Of a DNA stretch of 64,000 nucleotides, positions 4,857-44,640 are shown one piece after another. The stretch lies in contig JBGAKG010000005.1 of the NCBI GenBank assembly GCA_044224495.1, positions 300,711 through 364,710 on the forward strand. Reading direction: 5' to 3'. The stretch comes from Polyangiaceae bacterium (GTDB taxonomy: Bacteria; Myxococcota_A; Polyangia; Polyangiales; Polyangiaceae). The translations under genes were made by a program, and so were the position numbers. Positions within the stretch are counted from its first letter, which is position 1, and every line of letters begins with the position of its first letter. The notes beneath the pieces were generated by a model that searched no databases, was not told the DNA's origin, and saw only the letters and a list, made by a program, of their open reading frames with translations.

Positions 4857-4929
4857 GCCCAGGTAGCTCAGTTGGTAGAGCAGGGGATTGAAAATCCCCG
4901 TGTCGGCGGTTCGATTCCGTCCCTGGGCA
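4857..4929 (+). tRNA. tRNA-Phe (anticodon GAA)
   Basis: Clean cloverleaf by hand: acceptor GCCCAGG/CCTGGGC, D-loop AGTTGGTA, anticodon loop TTGAAAA giving GAA, T-loop TTCGATT. Serves as the integration target (attL). Confidence 0.9.
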
Positions 4930-4930
4930 C
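4888..4930 (+). repeat. attL core: 3' half of tRNA-Phe
   Basis: TTGAAAATCCCCGTGTCGGCGGTTCGATTCCGTCCCTGGGCAC, identical to 14661-14703. Confidence 0.85.
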
Positions 4931-4991
4931 GAAGAAACAAGGGGTTTCGTGATTCGAGACCTTCCACCGGGTACCCCGTTTTCCACGAGCT

Positions 4992-5010
4992 GGGGTACCG
5001 CCGGGGTACC
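4992..5010 (+). repeat. 19-bp repeat GGGGTACCGCCGGGGTACC, candidate integrase arm-type site (attL side)
   Basis: Exact copy at 14590-14608, about 55 bp from the attR core. A third GGGTACC lies at 4969. TTCCACGAG also occurs near both att ends (4982 and 14651). Confidence 0.45.
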
Positions 5011-5257
5011 GGGCCCGTAGGGCGCTCGACCCGAGGAACGGCCCAACCCCCCATCCGACGCCCGAAAGCGCGTCCTGCGTCATCCTGGGCGAACGCCACG
5101 AGCGTCTGCGGTCGACGTGTGGGCGATGCGCGGGTGCAGCTTGGCACAATCGCGGGGGCGCCAATAGTTGCCAGCGTTAGAGGGGGTGCTAATCCTGAGT
5201 AAAATCGATAAGTTACGACCTTGACGTGGCCAGGGCCTGCGCTATGTTCCCTCCAAC

Positions 5258-5443
5258 ATGGCACACCTTGGCACATCGGTCCCCCGTCTCCCTCCCGAGC
5301 TGCGGCGCGCCCACGTCTACCGGGTCCCGGTCAGCGCCATCGAGCGCGAGGCCATCGCCCGGATCGCGGCGGCCCGCGGCATCCCCGTGGCTCAGCTCCT
5401 CCGTGAGCTGGCGCTCGCCACCGCTCCGAAGGTGCGGGCATGA
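5258..5443 (+). CDS. small putative DNA-binding protein (61 aa)
   Basis: First ORF inside the element after attL. Basic and helical (IEREAIARIAAARGIPVAQLLRELA), consistent with a small regulator. Weak call. Confidence 0.35.
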   Translation: MAHLGTSVPRLPPELRRAHVYRVPVSAIEREAIARIAAARGIPVAQLLRELALATAPKVRA

Positions 5444-5589
5444 GGGCCGCGATCGTGGCGCTCGCTGAGCGCATCATCCGCGCCCTCGTCCCCCCGCCCC
5501 CGGGCGGAGATGGTGGCTTTCGCGTCGTCACTCGTGTCGATGAGTTCGGGCGCGAGCGCCGCACCTACGAGCCGCGAGGGTCCCGGTGA
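5440..5589 (+). CDS. small hypothetical protein (49 aa)
   Basis: ATG at 5440 overlaps the previous stop (ATGA) and ends where the next gene's GTG starts. Call rests only on gene packing. Confidence 0.25.
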   Translation: MRAAIVALAERIIRALVPPPPGGDGGFRVVTRVDEFGRERRTYEPRGSR

Positions 5590-6440
5590 GCACCACCTAC
5601 AACCCGAATTCTCGGGTCGTCCAAGCGACCTCGCCGGCACCGGTCGCCATCGCATCGAGCACGGGGGCAACCCCGATCGTCGTGACGACGGCGACGCCGC
5701 ACGGCTACGTGGCGGACGATTGCGTCCAGATCATCGGCCACGACCAAGCGGCGGCGAACGGCCTTTGGCAGGTCACCGTAGTCGACGCGACGCGCTTCTC
5801 CTTGAAGACCTCGATCGGAACTGGCGCGGGCGGGGCGATCGGGCAGGCGCAGGACTTCAGCGTCAACCCGCTGCTGACCCTCCCCGGCGACGGCGACCTG
5901 GAGAGCGCGTCCAGCGTCAACGCCCCCATCTCCGGGCAGGCGAACGTGGCGCCGTTCCTGTACCAGCGCGTCGGCAAGTACAAAACGCACGAGGTGTACC
6001 AGGCCGGGACGTTCCTCAGCGTCGGGAACGCGTTCAGCGCGACCGCGGTAGGCACCGCGACTTGGACCACGCTGACGGGATTGGGGAACGTGCTCAGCGC
6101 GCTCGCCGATCGCTATCTCGCCTCGGGCGACATCCTCGAAGTTCTTTTCACGAGCACGATCTTCGTCCAGCCCGCGCAGGAATTCGCGCTCGCGATCGGG
6201 CTCTCGCTGAACGGCGGGGCGGCGTCGCCCCAGAGCTACAGCGTGCGTACCGCGTCGAACGCGGGCGCGTCGTCGCTCGCCTTCCCCATCGCCTGCAGCG
6301 TCGTGATCGACTCCGGGTTCAGCGCCAACGATCGATTCGACCTCTCGGTCCTCGGCTACTCGCCCGCGGTCCCGGTCGGGAACCTCTCGCTGATGACCGG
6401 CTTCCAGCTGGAGTGCCGGCATTTAAGGAGCAACGCATGA
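5586..6440 (+). CDS. hypothetical Ser/Thr/Gly/Ala-rich protein, possibly a virion structural protein
   Basis: 284-aa ORF from the track with low-complexity beta-rich composition. Stop overlaps the next start (ATGA). Confidence 0.55.
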   Translation: MSTTYNPNSRVVQATSPAPVAIASSTGATPIVVTTATPHGYVADDCVQIIGHDQAAANGLWQVTVVDATRFSLKTSIGTGAGGAIGQAQDFSVNPLLTLPGDGDLESASSVNAPISGQANVAPFLYQRVGKYKTHEVYQAGTFLSVGNAFSATAVGTATWTTLTGLGNVLSALADRYLASGDILEVLFTSTIFVQPAQEFALAIGLSLNGGAASPQSYSVRTASNAGASSLAFPIACSVVIDSGFSANDRFDLSVLGYSPAVPVGNLSLMTGFQLECRHLRSNA

Positions 6441-6769
6441 ACCGACGAAACGAGATCGCCCGCACGCTTGTGGCCGAGGGCGTGAGCCCCTACTCGAAGA
6501 AGCTCCCCGCGCTCGTCGCAGCTCGGCTCCGCGCCGAGGAGGATGCCGACGCCGAGCTGCAGGGCGAGGAGATCGCCGAACAGGCCATCTCCGACGCGCG
6601 CCAGGCCCGCAAGGCTGCGCGCCGTCGCCGTGACATCGCGCGAGTCCAACGTCGGGTCGCCCAAGAGGGCGCGGCCGAAGCCGCGCCGCCGAAGCCGCGC
6701 ACGTTCGCGAGCGCCGCGGGTGACGTGCTCGAGGTGCACGCAGACGCGCGCGCGTGGGAGCGAGGCTGA
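6437..6769 (+). CDS. hypothetical charged/coiled-coil protein (110 aa)
   Basis: ATG at 6437 preceded by AAGGAG with a 6-nt spacer. Falls in the frame of ORF 5510..6769. Confidence 0.55.
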   Translation: MNRRNEIARTLVAEGVSPYSKKLPALVAARLRAEEDADAELQGEEIAEQAISDARQARKAARRRRDIARVQRRVAQEGAAEAAPPKPRTFASAAGDVLEVHADARAWERG

Positions 6770-6772
6770 TCC

Positions 6773-7072
6773 ATGTGGCAAGGGCTACGCGGCAGCATCA
6801 AGCGATTCGCCGGGTCCAGCGGCAACGTGGACCTTCCCGCGTGCGCTGCGGTCATCGCCATCAACGCGCACGCGACGACCGCGGGAAGCGTGACGTTCTG
6901 GGATCAAGCTGGCGGCTCCGTCACCGTCCCGGTCCCGGCGAACACGTGGTGGATCTTCGATCCAAAGCACGCGAACGCGATCGTTCAGAGGAGCGCGAGC
7001 TCCTACTCGCGGATCACGTTCGCGAGCACGGACAGCTACTTCGTCGAGGCCGTGAGCCCGATGGGGTTCTGA
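6773..7072 (+). CDS. hypothetical protein (99 aa)
   Basis: ORF from the track, tightly packed after the previous stop. Confidence 0.45.
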   Translation: MWQGLRGSIKRFAGSSGNVDLPACAAVIAINAHATTAGSVTFWDQAGGSVTVPVPANTWWIFDPKHANAIVQRSASSYSRITFASTDSYFVEAVSPMGF

Positions 7073-7136
7073 GAGTTCATCCCATTGTGGGATCCGGACA
7101 CAACGCCGTGACCCGGCCGGCAAAGCAGAGGACATC

Positions 7137-7739
7137 ATGAGCACGAAAGAGACCGACGCACTCCAACGCCAAGCGCTGGAGGAACAACTCGACCCGACCA
7201 AGACGATCGCGCGGCTCCGCGCAAACGCGGAGGTGAAGGTCGACCCGCGAAAGCGCGTCCTGTACCGGACGCCGACGCGCTGGAGCAGCGAGACATTCGT
7301 CGCGTGGGGCTACATGCTCCCCGGGTTCGGCGGCGCGCTGCGTGACGGCGAGTTCGTCGCCGCGGTGGCAACGCTCGCCCCGCGCATGCACGAGCCCGAC
7401 TGGCGCATCACCGCCGCGTTCGAGGATGCGGTGCTGTTCTCCGCTCCCCTCCTTGCCCGCATCGAAGCCCTTGTCATCTCGCCGGCGCGCCAGCGCGAGC
7501 TGGAAACCGCCTACCGTGGCGGGACCGCGCTGCGTGAGGTGCTGAACGCGGAGCTGCGGAAGGTTCACGCCGTCGTGGGTCACCACGCACTTGGACGTGC
7601 TCTCTCCGGGAAGATCCTCGGAGAGGTGCGGCGCGATCTCGTGCCCCTGAAGATCCTCGCCAAGGGCGAGCCCCTCCCCACGGTGGAGGAGATCTCCACC
7701 ATGAAGGAGATCGACATTCCGGCGCCGGGTGCGCTGTGA
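7137..7739 (+). CDS. hypothetical protein (200 aa)
   Basis: ORF from the track. Non-Arg-rich, balanced composition. Confidence 0.55.
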   Translation: MSTKETDALQRQALEEQLDPTKTIARLRANAEVKVDPRKRVLYRTPTRWSSETFVAWGYMLPGFGGALRDGEFVAAVATLAPRMHEPDWRITAAFEDAVLFSAPLLARIEALVISPARQRELETAYRGGTALREVLNAELRKVHAVVGHHALGRALSGKILGEVRRDLVPLKILAKGEPLPTVEEISTMKEIDIPAPGAL

Positions 7740-7981
7740 TCGTCGGTCGCCTGCAACGCGCGAGCGATCCACACGAGCCGCCGCGCTACGTCGACGTCGA
7801 TCTCCCCGAGGCGTTCGCGCTCGGGCTGTTCGAGAGCCACCACGAGCGGGGCGTGATCTTCTGCGCGGGGCGCGAGGGCTACGAGCCCCTGTTCCTCTTC
7901 CGCGCGGGAGAAGCGTACGTGCTCGCCGATGGCGAGCTAGGCGTGGTCACCGACTGGACCGTCGCCCGGTTCTGGAGCTGA
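7736..7981 (+). CDS. hypothetical protein (81 aa)
   Basis: GTG start overlaps the previous stop (GTGA). Confidence 0.45.
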   Translation: MIVGRLQRASDPHEPPRYVDVDLPEAFALGLFESHHERGVIFCAGREGYEPLFLFRAGEAYVLADGELGVVTDWTVARFWS

Positions 7982-7985
7982 GGCG

Positions 7986-8243
7986 ATGACCTTCCGAACC
8001 GGAGACCGCGCCGATCGCGACGTGCTCACGGTCGAAGGTCGCGTCATCAGCTGGGCGCACTCGCACGGCAAGGTCGAAGTGACGATGGCGGGGAAGCCCT
8101 TCGTCGTCACTGCGCACCGCAGCGGGAAACTGCGCATGAACCACGTTCACGTCCTGGAAGGCGACATGGTGAAGGTGGAGCTTTCACCCTTCGACCTCCG
8201 ACGCGGGCGAATCATCGAACGCGAGCGCTCGCCGCGCTCTTGA
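7986..8243 (+). CDS. infA-like: translation initiation factor IF-1 (InfA) family paralog carried by the mobile element
   Basis: VTAHRSGKLRMNHVHVLEGDMVKVELSPFDLRRGRIIER aligns to E. coli IF-1 ([39 protein letters not shown]). S1/OB fold, 85 aa. Confidence 0.7.
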   Translation: MTFRTGDRADRDVLTVEGRVISWAHSHGKVEVTMAGKPFVVTAHRSGKLRMNHVHVLEGDMVKVELSPFDLRRGRIIERERSPRS

Positions 8244-8425: not shown

Positions 8426-9850
8426 GTGTTTTCTACAGTAACCGCCGTACCGCTGGGTGCAACCAGCTCGAACGACAACGATGCGATCGTCATCGAACCT
8501 GGGCCCCCTGCGTGGCTCGACGATGCAGACGCCGATCGCGTGCTCGATGCCCAAGTCGACTCGCAAGCTCAGCCCCAAGACGAACCCTCGATGCCCGCCC
8601 GGCTCGGGTCTCACCTTGGCGATGCGCTTCTCCGCGCCCATCGGCGAGCGAACGGGAAGGAGCGGCCGGTACCCATCCCTTTCCCCTCGCTGGCGCCGCA
8701 CTTCGGCGGGGGCCTTTGGGCTGGCGTTCACTTCCTCGTGGCCGGGACGGGTCTCGGGAAGACGCAGCTAGGGCTGCAGGTGGGCCTGCATGCGGCGCGG
8801 GCGGGTGTGCCCGTGCTGTACTTGGGGCTGGAGCTGGAGCCGATGCAGATCGCCCTGCGCGCCATGGGCGACGCGTCCGGGGTGCCTTGGTCCAAGCTCT
8901 ACGTCGGCGACGCGCACCCGAACATGCTGGAGCGCGCGTCGGTGACGCTGGACGAGCTCGCGGCGCTCCCCTTCCACACCGAATTCGGGCGCCCCAACGG
9001 CTGGCCACAGGAGCGAATCACGGAGCTTGGGGCGAAGATGCGCGCCTACTACCCGGAGGCGGATGGGCCGGGGTCACGGCCGATTCTCGTGGTGCTCGAC
9101 TTCCTGCAACTCGTCGGCGACACCACCGGGGAGACGCTGGAGATCCGGGAGCGCATCGGGCGAGCGGCCTACAGGGCGCGCGCCTTGGGCGCGGAGAAGA
9201 ACATCTCCGTCCTGGTCATCTCGGGCGTGAGCCGCGAGGCGCGCCGCACCCTCGCCGACGCCGTAGCGGCGGCCGGGTTCGCCTACGACGAGGACGAGCA
9301 CGGCCGGCCGGTGAACCGTCGGATCCTCACCCCCGATGCCCTGCAGGGGCTGGCGAAGGAGAGCGGCGACGTGGAGTTCTCCGCCGACACCCTCAGCGTC
9401 ATCTACAAGGAGCCGGCGACGTTCGAGCCCGGCGGGGGCGTTGACGTGGTGTTCGCCACGGTGAAGGCGCGCGCGTGCCGCGAGACGTGGAGTCCGCTCC
9501 GCTTCACCGGCTTCACCTTCCACGAGCCCGAGGACCGCGGCGGGCGCCTCGTGGACGCGTGGAAAGCCAAGGACGATGCCCGCGCCCAGGCGAAGGAGCA
9601 ACGAGCCCAGGCCAAGCTGGACGCCAAGAGGGCCAAGCTCGTCGCCGACGCCGCCGCGGTCGCCGCCTACGTCCAAGCCAACCCCGGGTGCACGGTGCGC
9701 GCGGCCCGCGTGAACGCCGTAGGCGACGCCAGCGGCCGCTGGACCCGCGCCGTTGCCCTCCTCGGCCGTGCCCTCGCGACCGACGACAAGAAGCGGCTCA
9801 CCCTCGAACCTGCAGCCTTGTCGGACGAGGTGCGCTCATGTCTCACCTGA
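8426..9850 (+). CDS. DnaB-like (RecA-fold) replicative helicase / RepA-like ATPase
   Basis: Walker A GTGLGKTQL, DnaB H2-like VLDFLQLV and SGVSREA. No DnaB N-terminal domain. GTG start at 8426 is uncertain. Confidence 0.65.
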   Translation: MFSTVTAVPLGATSSNDNDAIVIEPGPPAWLDDADADRVLDAQVDSQAQPQDEPSMPARLGSHLGDALLRAHRRANGKERPVPIPFPSLAPHFGGGLWAGVHFLVAGTGLGKTQLGLQVGLHAARAGVPVLYLGLELEPMQIALRAMGDASGVPWSKLYVGDAHPNMLERASVTLDELAALPFHTEFGRPNGWPQERITELGAKMRAYYPEADGPGSRPILVVLDFLQLVGDTTGETLEIRERIGRAAYRARALGAEKNISVLVISGVSREARRTLADAVAAAGFAYDEDEHGRPVNRRILTPDALQGLAKESGDVEFSADTLSVIYKEPATFEPGGGVDVVFATVKARACRETWSPLRFTGFTFHEPEDRGGRLVDAWKAKDDARAQAKEQRAQAKLDAKRAKLVADAAAVAAYVQANPGCTVRAARVNAVGDASGRWTRAVALLGRALATDDKKRLTLEPAALSDEVRSCLT

Positions 9851-9990
9851 GCGTGGAAGAAAAGCGTGGACGTGGAAAATCCCCCCCATACCCCCCCACC
9901 GTTCCACGTTCCACGGTGGACGGCCGGGGGCCTACCGTGGAGCCGTGGACGGGCGTGGAATTCCACACCTTCCACGCTTTCCACGCCTAC
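9851..9990. repeat. iteron-like cluster of at least 11 copies of heptamer CGTGGA(A/C/G) in both orientations (putative replication origin)
   Basis: Directly downstream of the helicase stop, for example GCGTGGAAG, CGTGGACGTGGAAAA, GTTCCACGTTCCACGGTGGACGG, CCGTGGAGCCGTGGACGGGCGTGGAATTCCACACCTTCCACGCTTTCCACG. Followed by a poly-C tract and a relatively AT-rich 250 bp. Confidence 0.5.
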
Positions 9991-10241
9991 CCAACGGGAG
10001 GGGGACGGAAAGGAGGGGAGTCGAGCGGAAGGGGCAATTCTCGTACCACTGTAATTCGGTGGGTTGGCACGTTCCTTTCCATGGCCGAACGACGTTTCGG
10101 GACGGCACGGCGCTTGCCGTGCGGTCGGCGCGTGCATCCTGCAGAATTCCAGCGTGAGCGGCGCTCAAGTTGTCCCGTAAGTAACAGGCCGGGACACCCC
10201 TGGCGTGAGGCGAAAAACGTAAGTCTTTTCCGTTCGCATAC

Positions 10242-10269
10242 TTGCAAACTTTTTGGGACGCGCTACATT
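10242..10269 (+). promoter_or_regulatory. putative sigma70-like promoter for the serine recombinase gene
   Basis: TTGCAA-N16-TACATT sits 7 nt upstream of ATG 10276. The region is unusually AT-rich for this genome. Confidence 0.3.
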
Positions 10270-10275
10270 CCACCC

Positions 10276-10860
10276 ATGGGCCAAACCGCCGTGTATTTCC
10301 GCGTGAGTAGCCGTGGTCAGGACTTCGCCACCCAGCGGGACGCGGTGATGAAGGTCGCCCCCGCGGAGGCGTCGGTCTACCAAGAGAAGGCCAGCGCCAA
10401 GACGAAAGACCGGCCGGAGCTGAGCCGCCTACTCGCCGACGTGCGGGCCGGCATCGTGGATCGGGTCATCACCTTCAAGCTGGACAGGCTCACGCGCTCG
10501 GGTGTCGCCGACACCTTCGCCGTGGTGGATGCCATCCGGAAGGCTGGCGCAACCCTCCACTGCGTGGCCGATGGGCTCGTGGTGAAGCCGGGCGAGGACG
10601 TGACCAGCGACGTCCTGGTGTTCGCCCTGGGCCTTGCCGCCAAGCTGGAGCGCACCGCGAAGAACGACCGCATCGCCGCCGCACGGACGCGCCTGGAGGC
10701 CAAGGGCGAGGCATGGGGCCGGCCCGCCAGGGTCACCCCTGCCCAGCTCGACACCATCAAGCGCATGCGTGCCAAGGGCGACAGCGTGCGCACCATCGCC
10801 GCCGCGTTGGGCGTACCGCGCAGCACCATCGGGCGCGCGGTGAAGGAGCTCGGGTCATGA
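10276..10860 (+). CDS. serine recombinase (resolvase/invertase family)
   Basis: N-terminal catalytic motif VYFRVSSRGQD, about 194 aa, C-terminal HTH (RTIAAALGVPRSTIGRAVKE). Confidence 0.8.
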   Translation: MGQTAVYFRVSSRGQDFATQRDAVMKVAPAEASVYQEKASAKTKDRPELSRLLADVRAGIVDRVITFKLDRLTRSGVADTFAVVDAIRKAGATLHCVADGLVVKPGEDVTSDVLVFALGLAAKLERTAKNDRIAAARTRLEAKGEAWGRPARVTPAQLDTIKRMRAKGDSVRTIAAALGVPRSTIGRAVKELGS

Positions 10861-10938
10861 CCCGGGGGGCGCCTGTTTTCCAACCGACCCCCCTCCCCCT
10901 GGGCGGGGCCGTCTCTCCGGCAATTTTGCGAGGTAGCC

Positions 10939-11481
10939 ATGTATAAGCCGCGCGGTGGTGCTCCCACGATTGAGGTTGCCACGGTCGACCGGCAGCCTGA
11001 GCCTGTTCCGGGTGATGTTCCTGCGCCTGCGCCGCGAGGGTTCGGCAAGCTCAGTCCGAGCGAGGCGGGGAAGCTGGGCGGGGTCGAGCGGTGGAGGAAG
11101 TACAAGGCGCAGCAAGCGCTGGGGTTGAAGCTGCCCAAGGGGAGCAAGTTCGCGACGTACCGGACGCAGGCGAACGACTTCCTGACCGCGCACCTCTCGG
11201 AGCTGGCGAAGGTGGCGGGGGGGTCGGTTGGGCCTGGGCCATCCTCCATGGCTGCTTCGGCGGCGCTGCAGCTGGCGGCGTCGCGGTGGATGTTCGACAC
11301 GGCGGCGGCGGCGGGGGACCCGGCGCTGATGAAGCAGGCGAGCACGCTCGCGAACGACTCGAGGCAGAACCTGCTTGCGGCCTACGAGCTGGCGGTGCGC
11401 GAGGCGCAGGCGCGCGGGAAGTACGGGGCGACGAACGCGCGGACGTTGGCCGAGCGCTTGCTCGGGGAAGGGGTCGAGTGA
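10939..11481 (+). CDS. hypothetical protein, possible terminase small subunit by position
   Basis: 180-aa ORF immediately upstream of the TerL-like gene. No diagnostic motif. Confidence 0.4.
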   Translation: MYKPRGGAPTIEVATVDRQPEPVPGDVPAPAPRGFGKLSPSEAGKLGGVERWRKYKAQQALGLKLPKGSKFATYRTQANDFLTAHLSELAKVAGGSVGPGPSSMAASAALQLAASRWMFDTAAAAGDPALMKQASTLANDSRQNLLAAYELAVREAQARGKYGATNARTLAERLLGEGVE

Positions 11482-11483
11482 CC

Positions 11484-12974
11484 ATGGGCAAGCTGGCGGA
11501 GAAGTTCTTCAAGTTCGATGCGCGGCTGGAGAAGGCGGGGCAACCGCCGTGCTCGCCGTGGTGGCGAGCGGAGCTGACCAAGTTCTTCGACGCGTACGAG
11601 AGCGGCGCTGCGGATGAGTACTGGACATGCGTTGGACGCGGCGGCGCCAAGTCGACGGCGCTGTACAAGGTCGCGCTGTTCTTCACCCTGTTCGGCGAGT
11701 TCGACATCCCGAAGCACGAGACGCACTACGCGACACTCATCTCGCGCAACCGGACGGAGGCGACGAAGGGCGCGGCCATCATCGCGCGGTGGCTCGACGC
11801 GCTGGGGGTGAAGCACGATCCGACGTCCGACGTCATCCACATTGCCGGCACGCAACGCGGCATCCGCATCTTGAGCGCCAGCGTCGCGGGCGCCTCCGGT
11901 TGGCGCGCGTTCTTCGTCGGCGCGGACGAGTTCAGCAAGTGGAACCGCGAAGGTGAAGCCGCGATGCTGGACGCGGACGAGGTGCTTGCGAGCGCTCGCG
12001 CGCAGACGGCGACGCATGCGCGGGCGCCGCTGTTCGTCGCGAGCACGCCGTGGATCCAGGAAGGGAGCTTCTACGAATCGATCGTCGGAGGGTCCGTTGA
12101 CGGGCGCGTGGTGTCGGGCCCTGCCCCCTCGTGGGCAGCGAACCCGGCGATCACCGAGGCGCAGACGCGGAGGAAGGAGCCGAACCCCGCGCGCTGGCGC
12201 CGTGAGTACGCGTGCGAGTTCTCGGCCACCTTCGATGCTGAGTACTTCTCCGACGAGCTCGTGATGAAGTGCACGGACCCGGGGCGCCTCTCGCGTCCCG
12301 AGCCATCGGGGCGCTACATGCACGTCGTGGCCATCGACCCCGCGTTCGTGTCGGACGGGTTCGGCATTGCCATCGCGCACGTGGAGGACCGCGAGGGCGG
12401 CGCCGCCGTGGTGGTGCTCGACTACGTGCACAGCCTGCAGGGCGACCGCGGCGGCGGCGGGCTGACCCCGGCCTACGCCATCGCCAACGTGGCGCACCTT
12501 CGCTACGCCTTCCCCGGCGGGCGCGCGGTGCTGAGTGACCAGCATGCAGCCGAAGCGCTCGCGCCGATGTTCCTCGAAAGCGGGATGCTCTTGCTCCCTG
12601 AACCGTGGTCGCAGTCGTCCAAGGTCGAGCGGTTCGAGTTCGTCCGCAACCTCATGCGCGATGGTCGCCTCCGTCTTCCCGACGATCCGTTCCTTCGTCG
12701 CGAGATTGCGAACATCGGCGTACGTCGCACGGGCGCGGGTGTGGAGTCGATCTCCAGTCGCGGGCGCGATGACCGCGTGTTCGCCGCGGTGCAAGCGGTC
12801 TGGCACGCGGCCCGCGGTGGCGCTCTCCTCGCTGCAGGGTCGACCGTGCAAACGTCCACGTTCGGCACGCGCCGGATAAGCTTGGTCGCGACGGGAAGCG
12901 TCACGGGCCGTGGTGGTCCTGGTTACGCTACGGTGGAGAGTGAGATCGCTGCGAGCATCGGGCGGGACAGGTAG
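11484..12974 (+). CDS. phage terminase large subunit-like protein
   Basis: Deviant Walker A CVGRGGAKST, Walker B FFVGADEF, nuclease-domain motif HVVAIDPAFVSDGFGIAIAHVE. About 496 aa from ATG 11484. Confidence 0.6.
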   Translation: MGKLAEKFFKFDARLEKAGQPPCSPWWRAELTKFFDAYESGAADEYWTCVGRGGAKSTALYKVALFFTLFGEFDIPKHETHYATLISRNRTEATKGAAIIARWLDALGVKHDPTSDVIHIAGTQRGIRILSASVAGASGWRAFFVGADEFSKWNREGEAAMLDADEVLASARAQTATHARAPLFVASTPWIQEGSFYESIVGGSVDGRVVSGPAPSWAANPAITEAQTRRKEPNPARWRREYACEFSATFDAEYFSDELVMKCTDPGRLSRPEPSGRYMHVVAIDPAFVSDGFGIAIAHVEDREGGAAVVVLDYVHSLQGDRGGGGLTPAYAIANVAHLRYAFPGGRAVLSDQHAAEALAPMFLESGMLLLPEPWSQSSKVERFEFVRNLMRDGRLRLPDDPFLRREIANIGVRRTGAGVESISSRGRDDRVFAAVQAVWHAARGGALLAAGSTVQTSTFGTRRISLVATGSVTGRGGPGYATVESEIAASIGRDR

Positions 12975-13280: not shown

Positions 13281-13775
13281 ATGGCCTTCCTTCGACGCTG
13301 GCTTGACCCGCAGACGGTCCCGGGCGCTCCGCTGCCTGATGACGTCGCGCCCCTCGTGGTGGAGGCGCCCAAGAGGCGCAGGGCGAAGAACGGAACGAAG
13401 GTGGAACCGACCGGGCGCTACCTGACCGCGAAGGCCGTGGCCGGGGAGCTGGGCGTATCGCTCGCCCGTGCCTACGAGATCATGAAAGAGTGCACGCGCG
13501 TGATCGCTGGCCGGTCCGTGCGCGTGAGTCGTGCTGCATTCGAGAGCTGGAAGAAACGACACGAGGAAGGACCCTTGGCATGCGTGAGCCCCTCTACCAA
13601 AAGCACGGGATCTGGTGGTGCCGCGTCCGCAATCCGAATGGTGGGCGAGCGCTCCGCTTCTCCACCGGAACGAAAGACCGGACCGCGGCCGTCACGCGCT
13701 GGAAGCAACTGGAGCGAGAGCGCATCTCGGGTGCCGATCCGGCCACGAACCAAACCACGCTCGGAGATGCCCTAG
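13281..13775 (+). CDS. excisionase/AlpA-like HTH DNA-binding protein
   Basis: HTH RYLTAKAVAGELGVSLARAYEIMKE. Lies upstream of int. The 3' end overlaps the int start (13580) in another frame, so the true stop is uncertain. Confidence 0.4.
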   Translation: MAFLRRWLDPQTVPGAPLPDDVAPLVVEAPKRRRAKNGTKVEPTGRYLTAKAVAGELGVSLARAYEIMKECTRVIAGRSVRVSRAAFESWKKRHEEGPLACVSPSTKSTGSGGAASAIRMVGERSASPPERKTGPRPSRAGSNWSESASRVPIRPRTKPRSEMP

Positions 13776-14641
13776 ACGAACGGATCGAGGAACGGAAAGC
13801 GGCCGGGCGTGCGGACGGCACGATCCACATGCTCAAGGTGAAGGCACGCCAGCTAGCCCGTGTGCTCGGCTCCGAAACGAAACTCTCTCGCATCGGCGCC
13901 GCGGAGATCGATCACTTCGTCCAGCAACGCCTACAGGATGGCGCGGCGCGGACGACGGTGCAGAAGGAGCTCGTCACACTGCGCGGGACCTTGAAGCTCG
14001 CGCGCCGGCGCAAGCTCTACCCCCACGACGTGGCGAGCGTCATGCCCATCGACTTCTCAGCCGACTACCGGCCGCGTTCGCGCGCGCTGAGCGAGACGGA
14101 GATCGGGAAGCTCTTGGATGCGCTTCCGCCGGAGCGTGCCGCGGTGGTGGCGCTCATCCTCGCCACGAGTGCGACCTACCCGAGCGAGCTTGCCAGGCTC
14201 GAGCCTGATGACGTCGACATGAAGGCTTGGACCGTGCTCCTCCGAGGAACCAAGAGGCACACGAGGTATCGCGTTGTGCCGATCGTCTCGTACGCGCGGC
14301 CGTGGGTGAAGCTCGCCGTCCCCCATCTACCGCTACGGCCGTGGACGAACGTCCGGCGCGACTTGGACGCGGCGTGCGAGTCAGCCGGCATCCCCCGATG
14401 CTCGCCGAACGACCTGAGGCGCACGACGGCGACCCTGCTCCGCGCGCACGGCGTCGAGCCTTCCCTCATTGCTGCCGTGCTCGGCCACGTGGACAGCCGC
14501 ATGGTGGAGCGGGTGTACGGCAGGCTCACGCCGGACCAGCTCGCGCCCCTCTTGGATGGGCGCATTCGGGAGCACCGAAGCCGAGCGAAGGGGTACCGCC
14601 GGGGTACCAAGCGACCGCGAAATGCGAAAAACGCCGCATGA
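13580..14641 (+). CDS. int: tyrosine-type site-specific integrase
   Basis: N-terminus MREPLYQKHGIWWCRVRNPNGG is typical of P4-like integrases. C-terminal catalytic region HGVEPSLIAAVLGHVDSRMVERVYGRL has the R/H/Y residues. Ends 20 nt before the attR core. Confidence 0.85.
   Translation: MREPLYQKHGIWWCRVRNPNGGRALRFSTGTKDRTAAVTRWKQLERERISGADPATNQTTLGDALDERIEERKAAGRADGTIHMLKVKARQLARVLGSETKLSRIGAAEIDHFVQQRLQDGAARTTVQKELVTLRGTLKLARRRKLYPHDVASVMPIDFSADYRPRSRALSETEIGKLLDALPPERAAVVALILATSATYPSELARLEPDDVDMKAWTVLLRGTKRHTRYRVVPIVSYARPWVKLAVPHLPLRPWTNVRRDLDAACESAGIPRCSPNDLRRTTATLLRAHGVEPSLIAAVLGHVDSRMVERVYGRLTPDQLAPLLDGRIREHRSRAKGYRRGTKRPRNAKNAA
14590..14608 (+). repeat. 19-bp repeat GGGGTACCGCCGGGGTACC (attR-side copy, inside the int 3' end)
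   Basis: Exact copy of 4992-5010. Confidence 0.45.
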
Positions 14642-14660: not shown

Positions 14661-14703
14661 TTGAAAATCCCCGTGTCGGCGGTTCGATTCCGTCCCTGGG
14701 CAC
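14661..14703 (+). repeat. attR core: duplicated 3' half of tRNA-Phe
   Basis: 43/43 identical to 4888-4930. No tRNA 5' half upstream. Confidence 0.85.
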
Positions 14704-14706
14704 AGC

Positions 14707-14748
14707 GCTTCCCCTGCGCATGCGCATGCGCATGCCCCTGCCCGCCCC
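14707..14748. repeat. partial copy of the GCATGC-rich repeat family (R1) just outside attR
   Basis: CCTGCGCATGCGCATGCGCATGCCCCTGCCCGCC matches units at 43021-44460. Confidence 0.5.
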
Positions 14749-14768
14749 GCAGGTCCGAAAGACGCCGG

Positions 14769-14981
14769 CTACCTGCCTCTTCGCTCGTACTTGTACTTCC
14801 TGAAGTCGAGGAGCTTGCAGACGGGGGGATCGGTCCTGGGGTTCACCTCGACGAGATCGAGGCCTTCCTTCATCGCGAGGCGGAGCGCCTCCGCGAGGGG
14901 CATGACTCCGAGCATTTCTCCCTTCGATCCGATCACGCGGACCTCGGGCGTGCCACGGAGGTCTCCGTTCTTGCGCGTCAT
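14769..14981 (-). CDS. stand-alone IF3 N-terminal-domain protein (truncated infC-like, 70 aa)
   Basis: MTRKNGDLRGTPEVRVIGSKGEMLGVMPLAEALRLAMKEGLDLVEVNPRTDPPVCKLLDFRKYKYERRGR matches the IF3 N-domain and stops where the linker begins. No C-domain follows. Confidence 0.55.
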   Translation of the reverse strand: MTRKNGDLRGTPEVRVIGSKGEMLGVMPLAEALRLAMKEGLDLVEVNPRTDPPVCKLLDFRKYKYERRGR

Positions 14982-43015: not shown

Positions 43016-43470
43016 ACATCGACCTGCCCTGCGCGTGCGCATGCCCCTGCCCGCCGGGCAGCTCGCGTACACGCCGGCTAGCGCGAACCTGCCCATGCGC
43101 ATGCGCATGCCCCTGCCCGCCGGGCAGCTCGCGTAGACGCCCGCTTCGGGACATGGCGAAGGGTTCGTCCTCGCGCCTTGGTAGGTCCTCGCTCGGGAGG
43201 AGGAGTGGGAGGGGACCAACCCGTCGCTCCGCAAACCTCTCCCTCTCCCTCTCCTCCTCCCGAGCGACGACCCACCAGCTCGGAAGAATCCACACAACCA
43301 GCTCGCGTGGATGTCCGGCCTGGGAGAAACCTGCCCATGCGCATGCGCATGCCCCTGCCCGCCGGGCAGCTCGCGTGGACGCCCGCTTCGGGGCAAGGCA
43401 AGGACAAGGGCAAGGGCAAGGGCAATGGGAGCGCGAGCGTCCGTTCACGACTTGCCATCACGTCCTTTCG
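43016..43470. repeat. complex repeat array (R1 GCATGC/palindrome units, long-hairpin R3 unit, GCAAGG microsatellite)
   Basis: Three R1 copies (43021, 43087, 43330) each with near-palindrome CTGCCCGCCGGGCAG. R3 unit with a 16-bp perfect stem (CGCTCGGGAGGAGGAG/CTCCTCCTCCCGAGCG) and (CCTCT)n. (GCAAGG)n at 43392-43430. Confidence 0.7.
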
Positions 43471-43474
43471 CTCC

Positions 43475-44038
43475 ATGAGCTCGCCCGTCGTCGACCGCAC
43501 CACCGTCCTCCGCGAATGGCTCGCTGCCGCGCCGTTGCTCGCACCCGAGTGGAAGGAGCCGGTCGAGCGCGAGACCGTCCGATGGGTCCGCCGCGCGCGC
43601 GTGCTCGCCTTGCTCGAAGCTTTCCAGCTCGGCACGCCCGACGCTTTCGAGAACGGCCAGTTCCTGGCGGGTGCGGTGCGCGAGCGTTACGCCAAGACGT
43701 CGGCGCTGATGGAGAAGCACGAAGGCCGCCATCGCGCGGCGTCGTCGATGGTGCCGCCGCGCTTGTTCTGGTGGCTTCTCGGCTACCGTCGAGAAGCGGA
43801 GCGACTGCTCACGTTTCACGACGGGCTGCTCGAAGCGGGAATCGACGGTGTCTTCCAGGGCGTCGCCGTGACGCTAGCGGCGACGGAGCAGGCGCGAGGC
43901 TCGGTGGCGGAGATCGACGAGCTCCTCCTCGAGATGATCTCGCCCGACGACCGCAAGCTGCGGGGCGATGCGATCGAAGGTTGGCCGGACGCCGACCTGG
44001 AGGTGCTCCGGCGGCGGGAGGTTTGGGGGGACTGGTGA
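43475..44038 (+). CDS. orphan hypothetical protein embedded between repeat arrays
   Basis: ATG at 43475 in the frame of ORF 43178..44038. Non-repetitive 187 aa. Confidence 0.45.
   Translation: MSSPVVDRTTVLREWLAAAPLLAPEWKEPVERETVRWVRRARVLALLEAFQLGTPDAFENGQFLAGAVRERYAKTSALMEKHEGRHRAASSMVPPRLFWWLLGYRREAERLLTFHDGLLEAGIDGVFQGVAVTLAATEQARGSVAEIDELLLEMISPDDRKLRGDAIEGWPDADLEVLRRREVWGDW

Positions 44039-44640
<602 letters not shown>

Follow-up and report, generated by a model that had tools for sequence, protein, structure and literature searches.

The 64-kb window analysed here, that is, the whole stretch of DNA from a contig of a Polyangiaceae bacterium (70% GC), carries at a tRNA gene an integrated element of 9,773 bp, and the subject of this report is a cluster of short repeats (iterons) in that element, directly 3' of a gene for a DnaB-like helicase and upstream of a gene for a small serine recombinase. 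The tRNA-Phe (GAA) gene lies at 4857-4930 on the forward strand (ARAGORN and Rfam; an Rfam scan of the window matched only two tRNAs), and its 3' 43 bp (attL, 4888-4930) recur as a perfect direct repeat at 14661-14703 on the same strand (attR, where the end of the tRNA-Phe gene is duplicated). A tyrosine integrase gene (13490-14641, forward strand; 49 bits to Pfam Phage_integrase, with Xer-like NCBIfam matches) adjoins attR. The perfect repeats and the adjacent integrase place the cluster within an integrated element that runs from attL to attR.

The helicase gene (8426-9850, forward strand) encodes a protein of 474 amino acids (aa); the database annotation of the same protein begins at 8591 (419 aa). 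DnaB_C is its sole Pfam match (residues 103-272; 47.7 bits against a cutoff of 27), PHROG assigns it to the DnaB-like helicases, and the Walker A (GTGLGKT) and Walker B (VVLDFLQ) motifs are kept in an alignment with its relatives (alignment A2). These relatives were gathered from genomes, metagenomes and viral contigs and by exact look-up, and are referred to below by locus number (L). An AlphaFold2 model (predicted local distance difference test score, 88) has a disordered N terminus (residues 1-55), a linker helix (61-75) and a RecA-type ATPase, and its best structural matches in Foldseek are DnaB (E = 7e-17) and phage G40P, at E values of about 1e-16. With Walker motifs, DnaB_C score and DnaB-like fold all present, the protein is a DnaB-family ATPase of helicase superfamily 4 (SF4; DnaB/gp4 type). 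Pfam found no DnaB N-terminal domain (PF00772) in it, there is no primase domain in the window protein, and its scores against the NCBIfam DnaB equivalog models are far under the cutoffs; the relatives P0003, P0011 and P0029 carry an N-terminal Toprim primase fusion. In the AlphaFold model, a 45-residue helix (373-418) joins the ATPase to a C-terminal domain (residues about 405-474; 9638-9847, forward strand) with a helix-helix-helix-hairpin topology, which is predicted to be a winged helix and is the candidate reader of the iterons. The third helix of this domain contains an Arg-Trp pair that is invariant across relatives, with variable residues next to it. No Pfam family matched the domain, and a search with it against 1.84 billion representative proteins gave only 24 matches, nearly always at the C terminus of helicase-sized proteins.

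The helicase stop codon (TGA) occupies 9848-9850 and the first CGTGGA begins at 9852, which agrees with an earlier note on this DNA that had the repeats starting 1 nt after the stop. That note had counted at least 11 copies of CGTGGA(A/C/G) within 140 bp; the density stands, and the count, taken over both strands of 9852-9985, is 10 exact copies of CGTGGA and two that differ by one base (GGTGGA at 9916 and TGTGGA at 9962 on the minus strand). The other 63.9 kb of the window contain 82 copies, or 0.18 expected per 141 bp (Poisson P = 9e-15), and the cluster is the densest canonical hexamer cluster of the whole window, so the enrichment over background that the note expected is borne out. The same holds for its placing of the region outside any real coding sequence, since open reading frames (ORFs) drawn across 9851-10275 have a GC content at third codon positions (GC3) of 0.56-0.72 versus 0.87-0.89 in the flanking genes, which marks the region as noncoding.

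Read as the pentamer GTGGA, the cluster has 12 sites, on the plus strand at 9853, 9866, 9872, 9916, 9937, 9945 and 9955 and on the minus strand at 9903, 9910, 9962, 9971 and 9980, with units of 6-7 bp in both orientations and spacings of 6-31 bp. Aligned site by site with relatives (alignments A3 and A5), it begins with a left arm of three forward sites (sites 1-3, GCGTGGAAG, GCGTGGAC and CGTGGAAA; 9852-9877, plus strand). A core of two C runs follows at 9881-9897, and then come two reverse sites and one forward site (sites 4-5, TTCCACG TTCCACG, and site 6, GGTGGAC; 9902-9921, alignment A3), so that the core is flanked by two iterons to its left and two to its right that face opposite ways (sites 2-3 on the plus strand and sites 4-5 on the minus strand). 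Next is a GC spacer, GGCCGGGGGCCTAC (9922-9935), that is nearly identical in L001, L004 and L035 (alignment A3). The right array (9936-9986) sets three forward sites (7-9, 8-10 bp apart) head to head with three reverse sites (10-12, 9 bp apart); the junction between them is the palindrome GTGGAATTCCAC, and it is these nested inverted arrays that give the right array its single-strand fold z score of -4.3. Five further copies of CGTGGA lie in the 3' coding part of the helicase gene (9370-9563; at 9370, 9486, 9519 on the minus strand, 9550 and 9558) versus about 0.25 expected. Two of them stem from conserved VDAWK codons (GTGGACGCGTGGAAG), and as a group they could be a chance product of codon usage or could serve as auxiliary iterons.

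The core reads C7-ATA-C7 (G7-TAT-G7 on the opposite strand) and lies inside the cluster, between sites 3 and 4, and not behind it as the poly-C tracts had been described in the earlier note. It stays constant across relatives while the iterons change. A C/G-run core is found inside the cluster in L001, L003-L008, L010, L015-L018, L035, L093, L094 and the phage contigs, with a consensus of C5-8, then three to five bases (ATA, TTAA or TAATA) and then C/G5-8. Among distant relatives it takes the form of a small palindrome, C4-5-(TTAA or GTA)-G4-5, with two opposed iterons on each side. A three-tetrad quadruplex with 1-3-1 loops is conceivable for the G-rich strand of the window core, and ViennaRNA with its G-quadruplex option places one at 9881-9897, although the RNA parameters used make this a statement of feasibility only; the palindromic cores can form hairpins. 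Any structural role of the core in the opening of an origin is put forward here as a hypothesis only. The same note had singled out about 250 bp behind the repeats as the only markedly AT-rich DNA of the window. The GC minimum of the window does fall there (0.572, at 10036), but three other places are nearly as low (0.576-0.596) and the stretch from 10,000 to 10,275 is still 57-60% GC. We therefore do not retain this stretch as the unwinding part of an origin, and its right half (about 10165-10275) belongs with the recombinase gene, as described below.

The position of the cluster is a property of the helicase family. In all 16 close-family loci with downstream DNA (15 of them nonredundant), no 6-mer cluster anywhere in the locus (up to 13 kb) is denser than the one that begins 1-121 bp past the end of the helicase gene, and the densest cluster is also just 3' of the helicase in the nearest relative (L093), in the cultured myxobacterium Labilithrix luteola (L094; CP012333), in six phage contigs (37-120 kb) and in several distant relatives. 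Place and layout are thus kept in more than 18 relatives, and the repeat modules align site for site in the 12-site layout among helicases that are only 40-50% identical. The repeat word itself is what changes: it is GTGGAA in the window, GTGGAC in L001, L003, L004, L007, L035 and L094, GTGCAC in L005, GTGGTC in L006, GTGTAC and GTGAGC in L093, GCGTCA in L008, and CGCCACAC in L015-L018 and the phage contigs, so that nearly all words consist of GTG and three variable bases. A one-to-one alignment of sites with a changing word reads as a concerted change of a protein-DNA code. The module precedes the stop codon in some loci and follows it in others, the entire block is inverted in L007 and L094, and gene callers have translated the DNA in two frames among the relatives (tails SPPxPPPPSTSTVDG and PPHRPRPRWTA). 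These differing frames, stop positions and inversions argue for selection on the DNA and not on a protein, and for a module that works in either orientation.

Several lines of comparison point consistently to the winged-helix tail of the helicase as the reader of the iterons. An all-against-all comparison of the ORFs of 16 loci singles out the helicase as the one protein present in all of them; the other ORFs of the window element recur only as a terminase large subunit (TerL) in L008 and L094, the ORF at 10939 in L094 and the recombinase in L047. The winged helix tracks the repeat word more closely than the ATPase does. Between the window and L093 the ATPase is 81% identical and the winged helix 54%, and all iterons differ; the best match to the window winged helix is in L001 (63%, with the ATPase at 53%), whose iteron differs by one base. 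Winged-helix identity minus core identity is -0.07 for pairs with the same iteron and -0.14 for pairs with different iterons. The helicases of L002 and L019 end before the winged helix, and both loci are without a repeat cluster. L002 (6001-7420) is a second helicase copy on the same metagenome-assembled contig as L001, cut after residue 332 or so; neither the winged helix nor any of the repeat module is left, yet a downstream gene in common with L001 is retained, and to judge from this comparison it is a natural joint deletion of specificity domain and origin. The ribbon-helix-helix (RHH) protein encoded at 5258, which was considered as an iteron binder, is not common to the loci and was rejected. 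A RusA-like identity for the ORF 3' of the cluster in L001, L004 and L035 was dropped because it found no Pfam support.

Taken together, we consider it probable that 9852-9986 (possibly extending to about 10075) is the vegetative replication origin of the 9.8-kb integrative, phage-related element and that it is bound by a self-loading SF4 initiator-helicase. This reading starts from what was observed, namely, the repeats and their enrichment, the conserved place and layout, the co-variation of word and tail, and the boundaries of the element, together with the predicted winged-helix fold. The earlier note had proposed the cluster beside the DnaB-like helicase as a candidate origin, and the proposal has gained from the relatives that keep its place and layout, from a word that tracks the tail and from the joint losses. 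The additional stretch, 9990-10075, consists of a purine-rich tract (GGGAGGGGGACGGAAAGGAGGGGAG) and GCAATTCTCGTACCA...GGTTGGCACG, is kept in L093 (alignment A5) and may contribute to the origin as an accessory. Once the element has excised, the helicase that it encodes would act as the initiator, its winged helix, held on a long flexible helix, reading the GTGGA(A/C) hexamers through contacts of the invariant Arg-Trp of helix 3 with the conserved GTG and of the variable residues with the three variable bases. The twelve sites in two opposed sets would then assemble hexamers head to head around C7-ATA-C7, the duplex would open at the core and the rings would load without a separate loader, after which host factors or other factors of the element would prime and elongate. 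That the helicase binds the iterons, melts the duplex and loads itself, and what the core does in this, are inferred parts of the scheme, and every step beyond the docking of the winged helix is modelled by analogy.

Some of our results weigh against an origin of this kind. The window helicase is without a primase domain and no primase was recognised among the ORFs of the element. There is no AT-rich unwinding element, the centre being C7-ATA-C7, and no 100-bp stretch in the 64 kb falls below 50% GC. The co-variation statistics use about 13 sequences that are related to one another, with no correction for phylogeny. In L010 and L015-L018, moreover, the helicase frame continues across the repeats and on into a conserved motif, so that in some relatives the module may lie within a gene. 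The motif, P-x-x-W-A-T-E-x-G-W-D-D-x-R-I-R, is seen 3' of the repeats in L010 (7197-7575), L015-L018 and L083-L091, and in the read-through relatives the origin may be situated inside a longer gene or be followed by a separate small gene that starts just after the repeats.

Among other explanations, the one that survives best is that a regulator uses the repeats as an operator or handcuffing array; this could be the helicase tail or a small DNA-binding protein such as the RHH protein encoded at 5258, and the array would control transcription or copy number without being the start site of replication. Operators bound by RHH and omega-type proteins typically consist of repeats in both directions, an RHH protein with a weak NikA-like match is encoded both in the window (5258-5443, Pfam) and in the Labilithrix element, and the cluster lies between two genes. 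Nevertheless, we regard an operator as unlikely, since the helicase is the one protein that the loci share, the module stands 3' of its gene and not upstream and can face either way (L007 and L094), the genes downstream vary by locus, and the conserved C-run core has no obvious role in an operator.

The genes 3' of the cluster raise the question of packaging. A TerL-like ORF (11091-12974, forward strand; phrog_2, E = 4.5e-13) lies 1.1 kb 3' of the cluster, a 180-aa ORF (10939-11481, forward strand) overlaps its start, and both have homologues in the same order 3' of the helicase and repeats in Labilithrix luteola (L094 11954-14049; tblastn identities of 39% and 52%). Searches of Pfam, PHROG, NCBIfam and PDB sequences recognised no capsid, portal or primase gene among the ORFs of the element; because the TerL-like pair is present and the portal and capsid genes are absent, the element resembles a phage satellite or a prophage remnant. 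An element without capsid genes may rely on a helper phage, TerL-like genes are also found downstream in L008 and L094, and the cluster could on these grounds be a pac- or cos-like packaging site, or another site of interaction with a phage. Most loci with the module have no TerL relative within 6 kb, however, and the cluster is tied to the 3' end of the helicase gene (1-121 bp) with a word that co-varies with the helicase tail, which makes a packaging site quite improbable. Both the operator and the packaging site fit a pattern that is helicase linked, orientation independent and co-varying less well than an origin does.

The cluster also lies about 290 bp upstream of the small serine recombinase gene (10276-10860, forward strand; Pfam Resolvase at 93 bits, with C-terminal helix-turn-helix [HTH] matches HTH_38 and HTH_7), a member of the Pin-like invertase/resolvase family, and inverted short repeats are typical of the res sites at which such enzymes act. 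A role as the crossover site of this recombinase, for multimer resolution or inversion, is nonetheless very improbable. At least 16 relatives have the cluster and no serine recombinase nearby, from which it follows that the cluster is independent of the recombinase; of the latter we found 216 homologues, and it is absent from most of the helicase-origin relatives. Subsites of 28-34 bp in res sites are built of inverted half-sites of about 12 bp, a pattern that the cluster does not fit and that a different motif fits loosely, TGTCCCG-N12-CGGGACA at 10171-10196. This inverted repeat and TTTTTGGGAC (10250-10259) are kept upstream of a 67%-identical recombinase in L095 and L096 (L095 3905-4000), and the inverted repeat is the candidate binding or crossover site of the recombinase. 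GGGACR/YGTCCC occurs five times in 10002-10260 versus 0.4 expected, the copies outside the inverted repeat being GGGACR at 10002, 10099 and 10255. Since sequences in it are kept upstream of recombinase homologues, the DNA from about 10165 to 10275 is counted with the recombinase cassette rather than with the origin. A search for the insertion boundaries of that cassette, comparing 9985-11000 of the window with the Labilithrix intergenic region, returned only chance 9-14-mers. Between the origin module and the recombinase sites, at 10101-10126, lies a hairpin with an 11-bp stem (GACGGCACGGC GCTT GCCGTGCGGTC), which is not a classical terminator because it has no T run.

The earlier note's promoter for the recombinase, TTGCAA (10242-10247)-N16-TACATT (10264-10269) on the forward strand, is present as sequence, but it matches the consensus at 8 of 12 positions, is not called by a promoter scan, and its -10 hexamer is within a 16-nt insertion between TTTTTGGGA and the ATG that is missing upstream of the L095/L096 recombinase. 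If the promoter is real, the recombinase mRNA would be leaderless, as the -10 hexamer ends 6 nt before the ATG. With regard to the suggestion that helicase, iterons and resolvase form one replication and multimer-resolution module, the relatives that have the cluster alone show that the proposed origin does not need the recombinase, while in L095 and L096 the same recombinase family again lies 3' of a helicase and iterons, and this recurrence of the order keeps the idea of multimer resolution alive. The helicase there (694 aa, DnaB_C) is not detectably similar to the window helicase by BLASTP and has an HTH-like C-terminal tail, and directly 3' of its stop codon (L095 3279-3440, and L096) are eight GGAACG iterons around a GCGTCTCC-TATA-GGAGACGC palindrome. 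The combination of an SF4 helicase, a DNA-binding tail and downstream iterons thus extends beyond one family.

Two further explanations fare no better. Host DnaA boxes, in a DnaA-dependent origin or sink, come to mind because TCCAC is the core of TTATCCACA / TTGTCCACA and GTCCAC and TTCCAC share five to six bases with the DnaA box, but only 1 of the 12 sites is within two mismatches of TTRTCCACA, there is no excess across the window, and words of the relatives such as GTGCAC, GGAACC, GTACCA and CGTCCC are unrelated to the box, so that this too is very improbable. Least probable of all is that the repeat DNA encodes a low-complexity extension or linker at the C terminus of the helicase, or that it arose by chance or slippage and has no function: gene callers do read through them in several relatives (the SPPxPPPPSTSTVDG tails) and the frame stays open in L010 and L015-L018, but in the window the TGA precedes the cluster, GC3 is noncoding, relatives carry this DNA in two or more frames and in both strand orientations, and the layout is kept across helicases of 40-50% identity.

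If the cluster is an origin read by its own helicase, its closest counterparts in the literature are found in staphylococcal islands. The Rep helicases of Staphylococcus aureus pathogenicity islands (SaPIs) bind 6-12 penta- or hexanucleotide iterons directly 3' of rep via a C-terminal winged helix, and two or more of these iterons flank the centre of the origin to the left and to the right, facing opposite ways (PMC9371898). The likeness to SaPIs and other phage-inducible chromosomal islands (PICIs) lies in an integrated phage-related island, a helicase proposed here as initiator and predicted here to end in a winged helix, 12 short sites that start 1 nt after the helicase stop codon with sites 2-3/4-5 and 7-9/10-12 opposed, and a specificity that diverges fast between islands or elements. 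In contrast, SaPI Rep is a superfamily 3 (SF3) AAA+ protein of the DUF927 or Primase_Cterm type, whereas the protein here has the SF4 RecA fold and matches DnaB_C only in Pfam; the SaPI centre is AT-rich and not C7-ATA-C7, there is no sequence relationship, and the host here is a myxobacterium-like genome of 70% GC. Given the different ATPase and centre, the locus would work like a SaPI origin without being a member of the SaPI family. In the staphylococcal cassette chromosome mec (SCCmec), Cch2 binds repeats in the cch2-ccrC intergenic region (PMC7581432), and the order of helicase, intergenic repeats and serine recombinase gene is the same as in our element. Cch2, however, is a helicase of the D5/Primase_Cterm type whose iterons are direct and number only three, and the ccrC product (cassette chromosome recombinase family CcrC by its NCBIfam model) is a serine recombinase of the large type and mobilises the cassette, unlike the small Pin/resolvase type here, where a tyrosine integrase integrates.

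Replicative helicases with an origin-binding domain of their own are also found in phage P4 alpha with ori/crr, simian virus 40 (SV40) large T and papillomavirus E1, and in these systems opposed short repeats direct the assembly of two hexamers. All three are SF3 helicases, with DNA-binding domains of other folds or in other positions and with AT tracts in their origins. Among SF4 proteins, T7 gp4 and RSF1010 RepA are likewise minimal hexameric helicases without the DnaB N-terminal domain, and gp4 is reminiscent of those relatives of the window helicase that carry an N-terminal Toprim primase, but neither is known to have an origin-recognition domain; they rely on transcription (T7) or on the separate initiator RepC. 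Lambda O with ori-lambda is similar in that its iterons lie within a replication gene or at its end, as in the read-through loci L010 and L015-L018, but O is not a helicase and the lambda iterons are direct repeats of about 19 bp followed by an AT-rich region. SV40 large T and papillomavirus E1 are cited as functional analogues in PMC7581432. A classical iteron-plasmid origin (Rep_3 or RepA-pi-TrfA) does not fit, as the units are 6-7 bp in both orientations and not one-way tandems of 17-22 bp, the DnaA boxes and the AT-rich element of such origins are lacking by the counts given above, and no Rep_3-type initiator matched in Pfam or NCBIfam among the ORFs of the element. The principle of a helicase as its own initiator is already known, and new are the SF4 scaffold and the C-run core. 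The DNA of the region and the helicase protein gave no match in public phage and plasmid collections, and neither in these collections nor in the literature searched did we find a description of the helicase family, its winged helix or its origin; a literature search for a self-loading, iteron-binding SF4/DnaB-like helicase, or for such a myxobacterial element, turned up only work on SaPI, SCCmec and pRN1, which is not proof of absence.

The rest of the element offers few clues to the function of its genes. The ORFs at 5510-6769, 6754-7140, 7137-7739 and 7736-7981 received no function from Pfam, PHROG, NCBIfam or PDB-sequence searches, and with these four ORFs without assignment no primase or second initiator was identified. 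A homologue of translation initiation factor IF-1 (infA) is encoded just 5' of the helicase gene (7986-8243, forward strand; TIGR00008 at 62.3 bits against a cutoff of 61.15, and Pfam eIF-1a at 2e-12). A copy of a translation factor with an oligonucleotide/oligosaccharide-binding (OB) fold is unusual cargo for a 9.8-kb mobile element, and the protein might be an accessory that binds single-stranded DNA or RNA. Directly 3' of attL, at 4950-5015, two iteron-like TTCCAC sequences (4962 and 4982) stand with three GGGTACC repeats (cgGGTACCcc, GGGGTACCgccGGGGTACC); these motifs could be arm-type sites for integrase or excisionase, or a second helicase-binding locus. Finally, a 77-nt repeat (...CATGCGCATGCGCATGCCCCTGCCCGCC...) occurs in six copies, one abutting attR (14711-14787) and five in a 1.5-kb block at 43020-44491 that also contains CT-rich repeats (43212-44388), and it looks like an intergenic repeat family of the host.

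In conclusion, we tentatively suggest that this locus is the first recognisable case of a class of self-loading SF4 initiator-helicases from high-GC soil bacteria, their phages and integrative elements, although we would hold this wider proposal to be doubtful as yet. In such a class a private winged helix would read fast-diversifying GTG-NNN iterons, and an oligo-C/G core (C7-ATA-C7, or C5-TTAA-G5 in distant members) would replace the AT-rich element and open, or stay open, via a G-quadruplex/i-motif where the runs are direct or via a hairpin or cruciform where they are palindromic. If the helicase does initiate at its own iterons, bacterial SF4 helicases of the DnaB/gp4 type would have converged on a design, that of a helicase as its own initiator, which is known from SF3 proteins of SaPIs, SCCmec, P4 and eukaryotic DNA viruses; this would be informative on the way in which ring helicases load when there is no loader. 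The helicase and origin together form a cassette of about 1.7 kb that could become a replicating vector for myxobacteria, for which few exist; pMF1 is described in one report as the sole autonomously replicating plasmid identified in these bacteria (PMC3235114), and Labilithrix luteola (CP012333) is an available cultured carrier. A C-run core in genomes of 60-70% GC raises the question of how an origin opens without AT-rich DNA, and one layout with at least seven iteron words and matching winged-helix variants would offer a ready series for the study of the recognition code and of incompatibility between competing elements.

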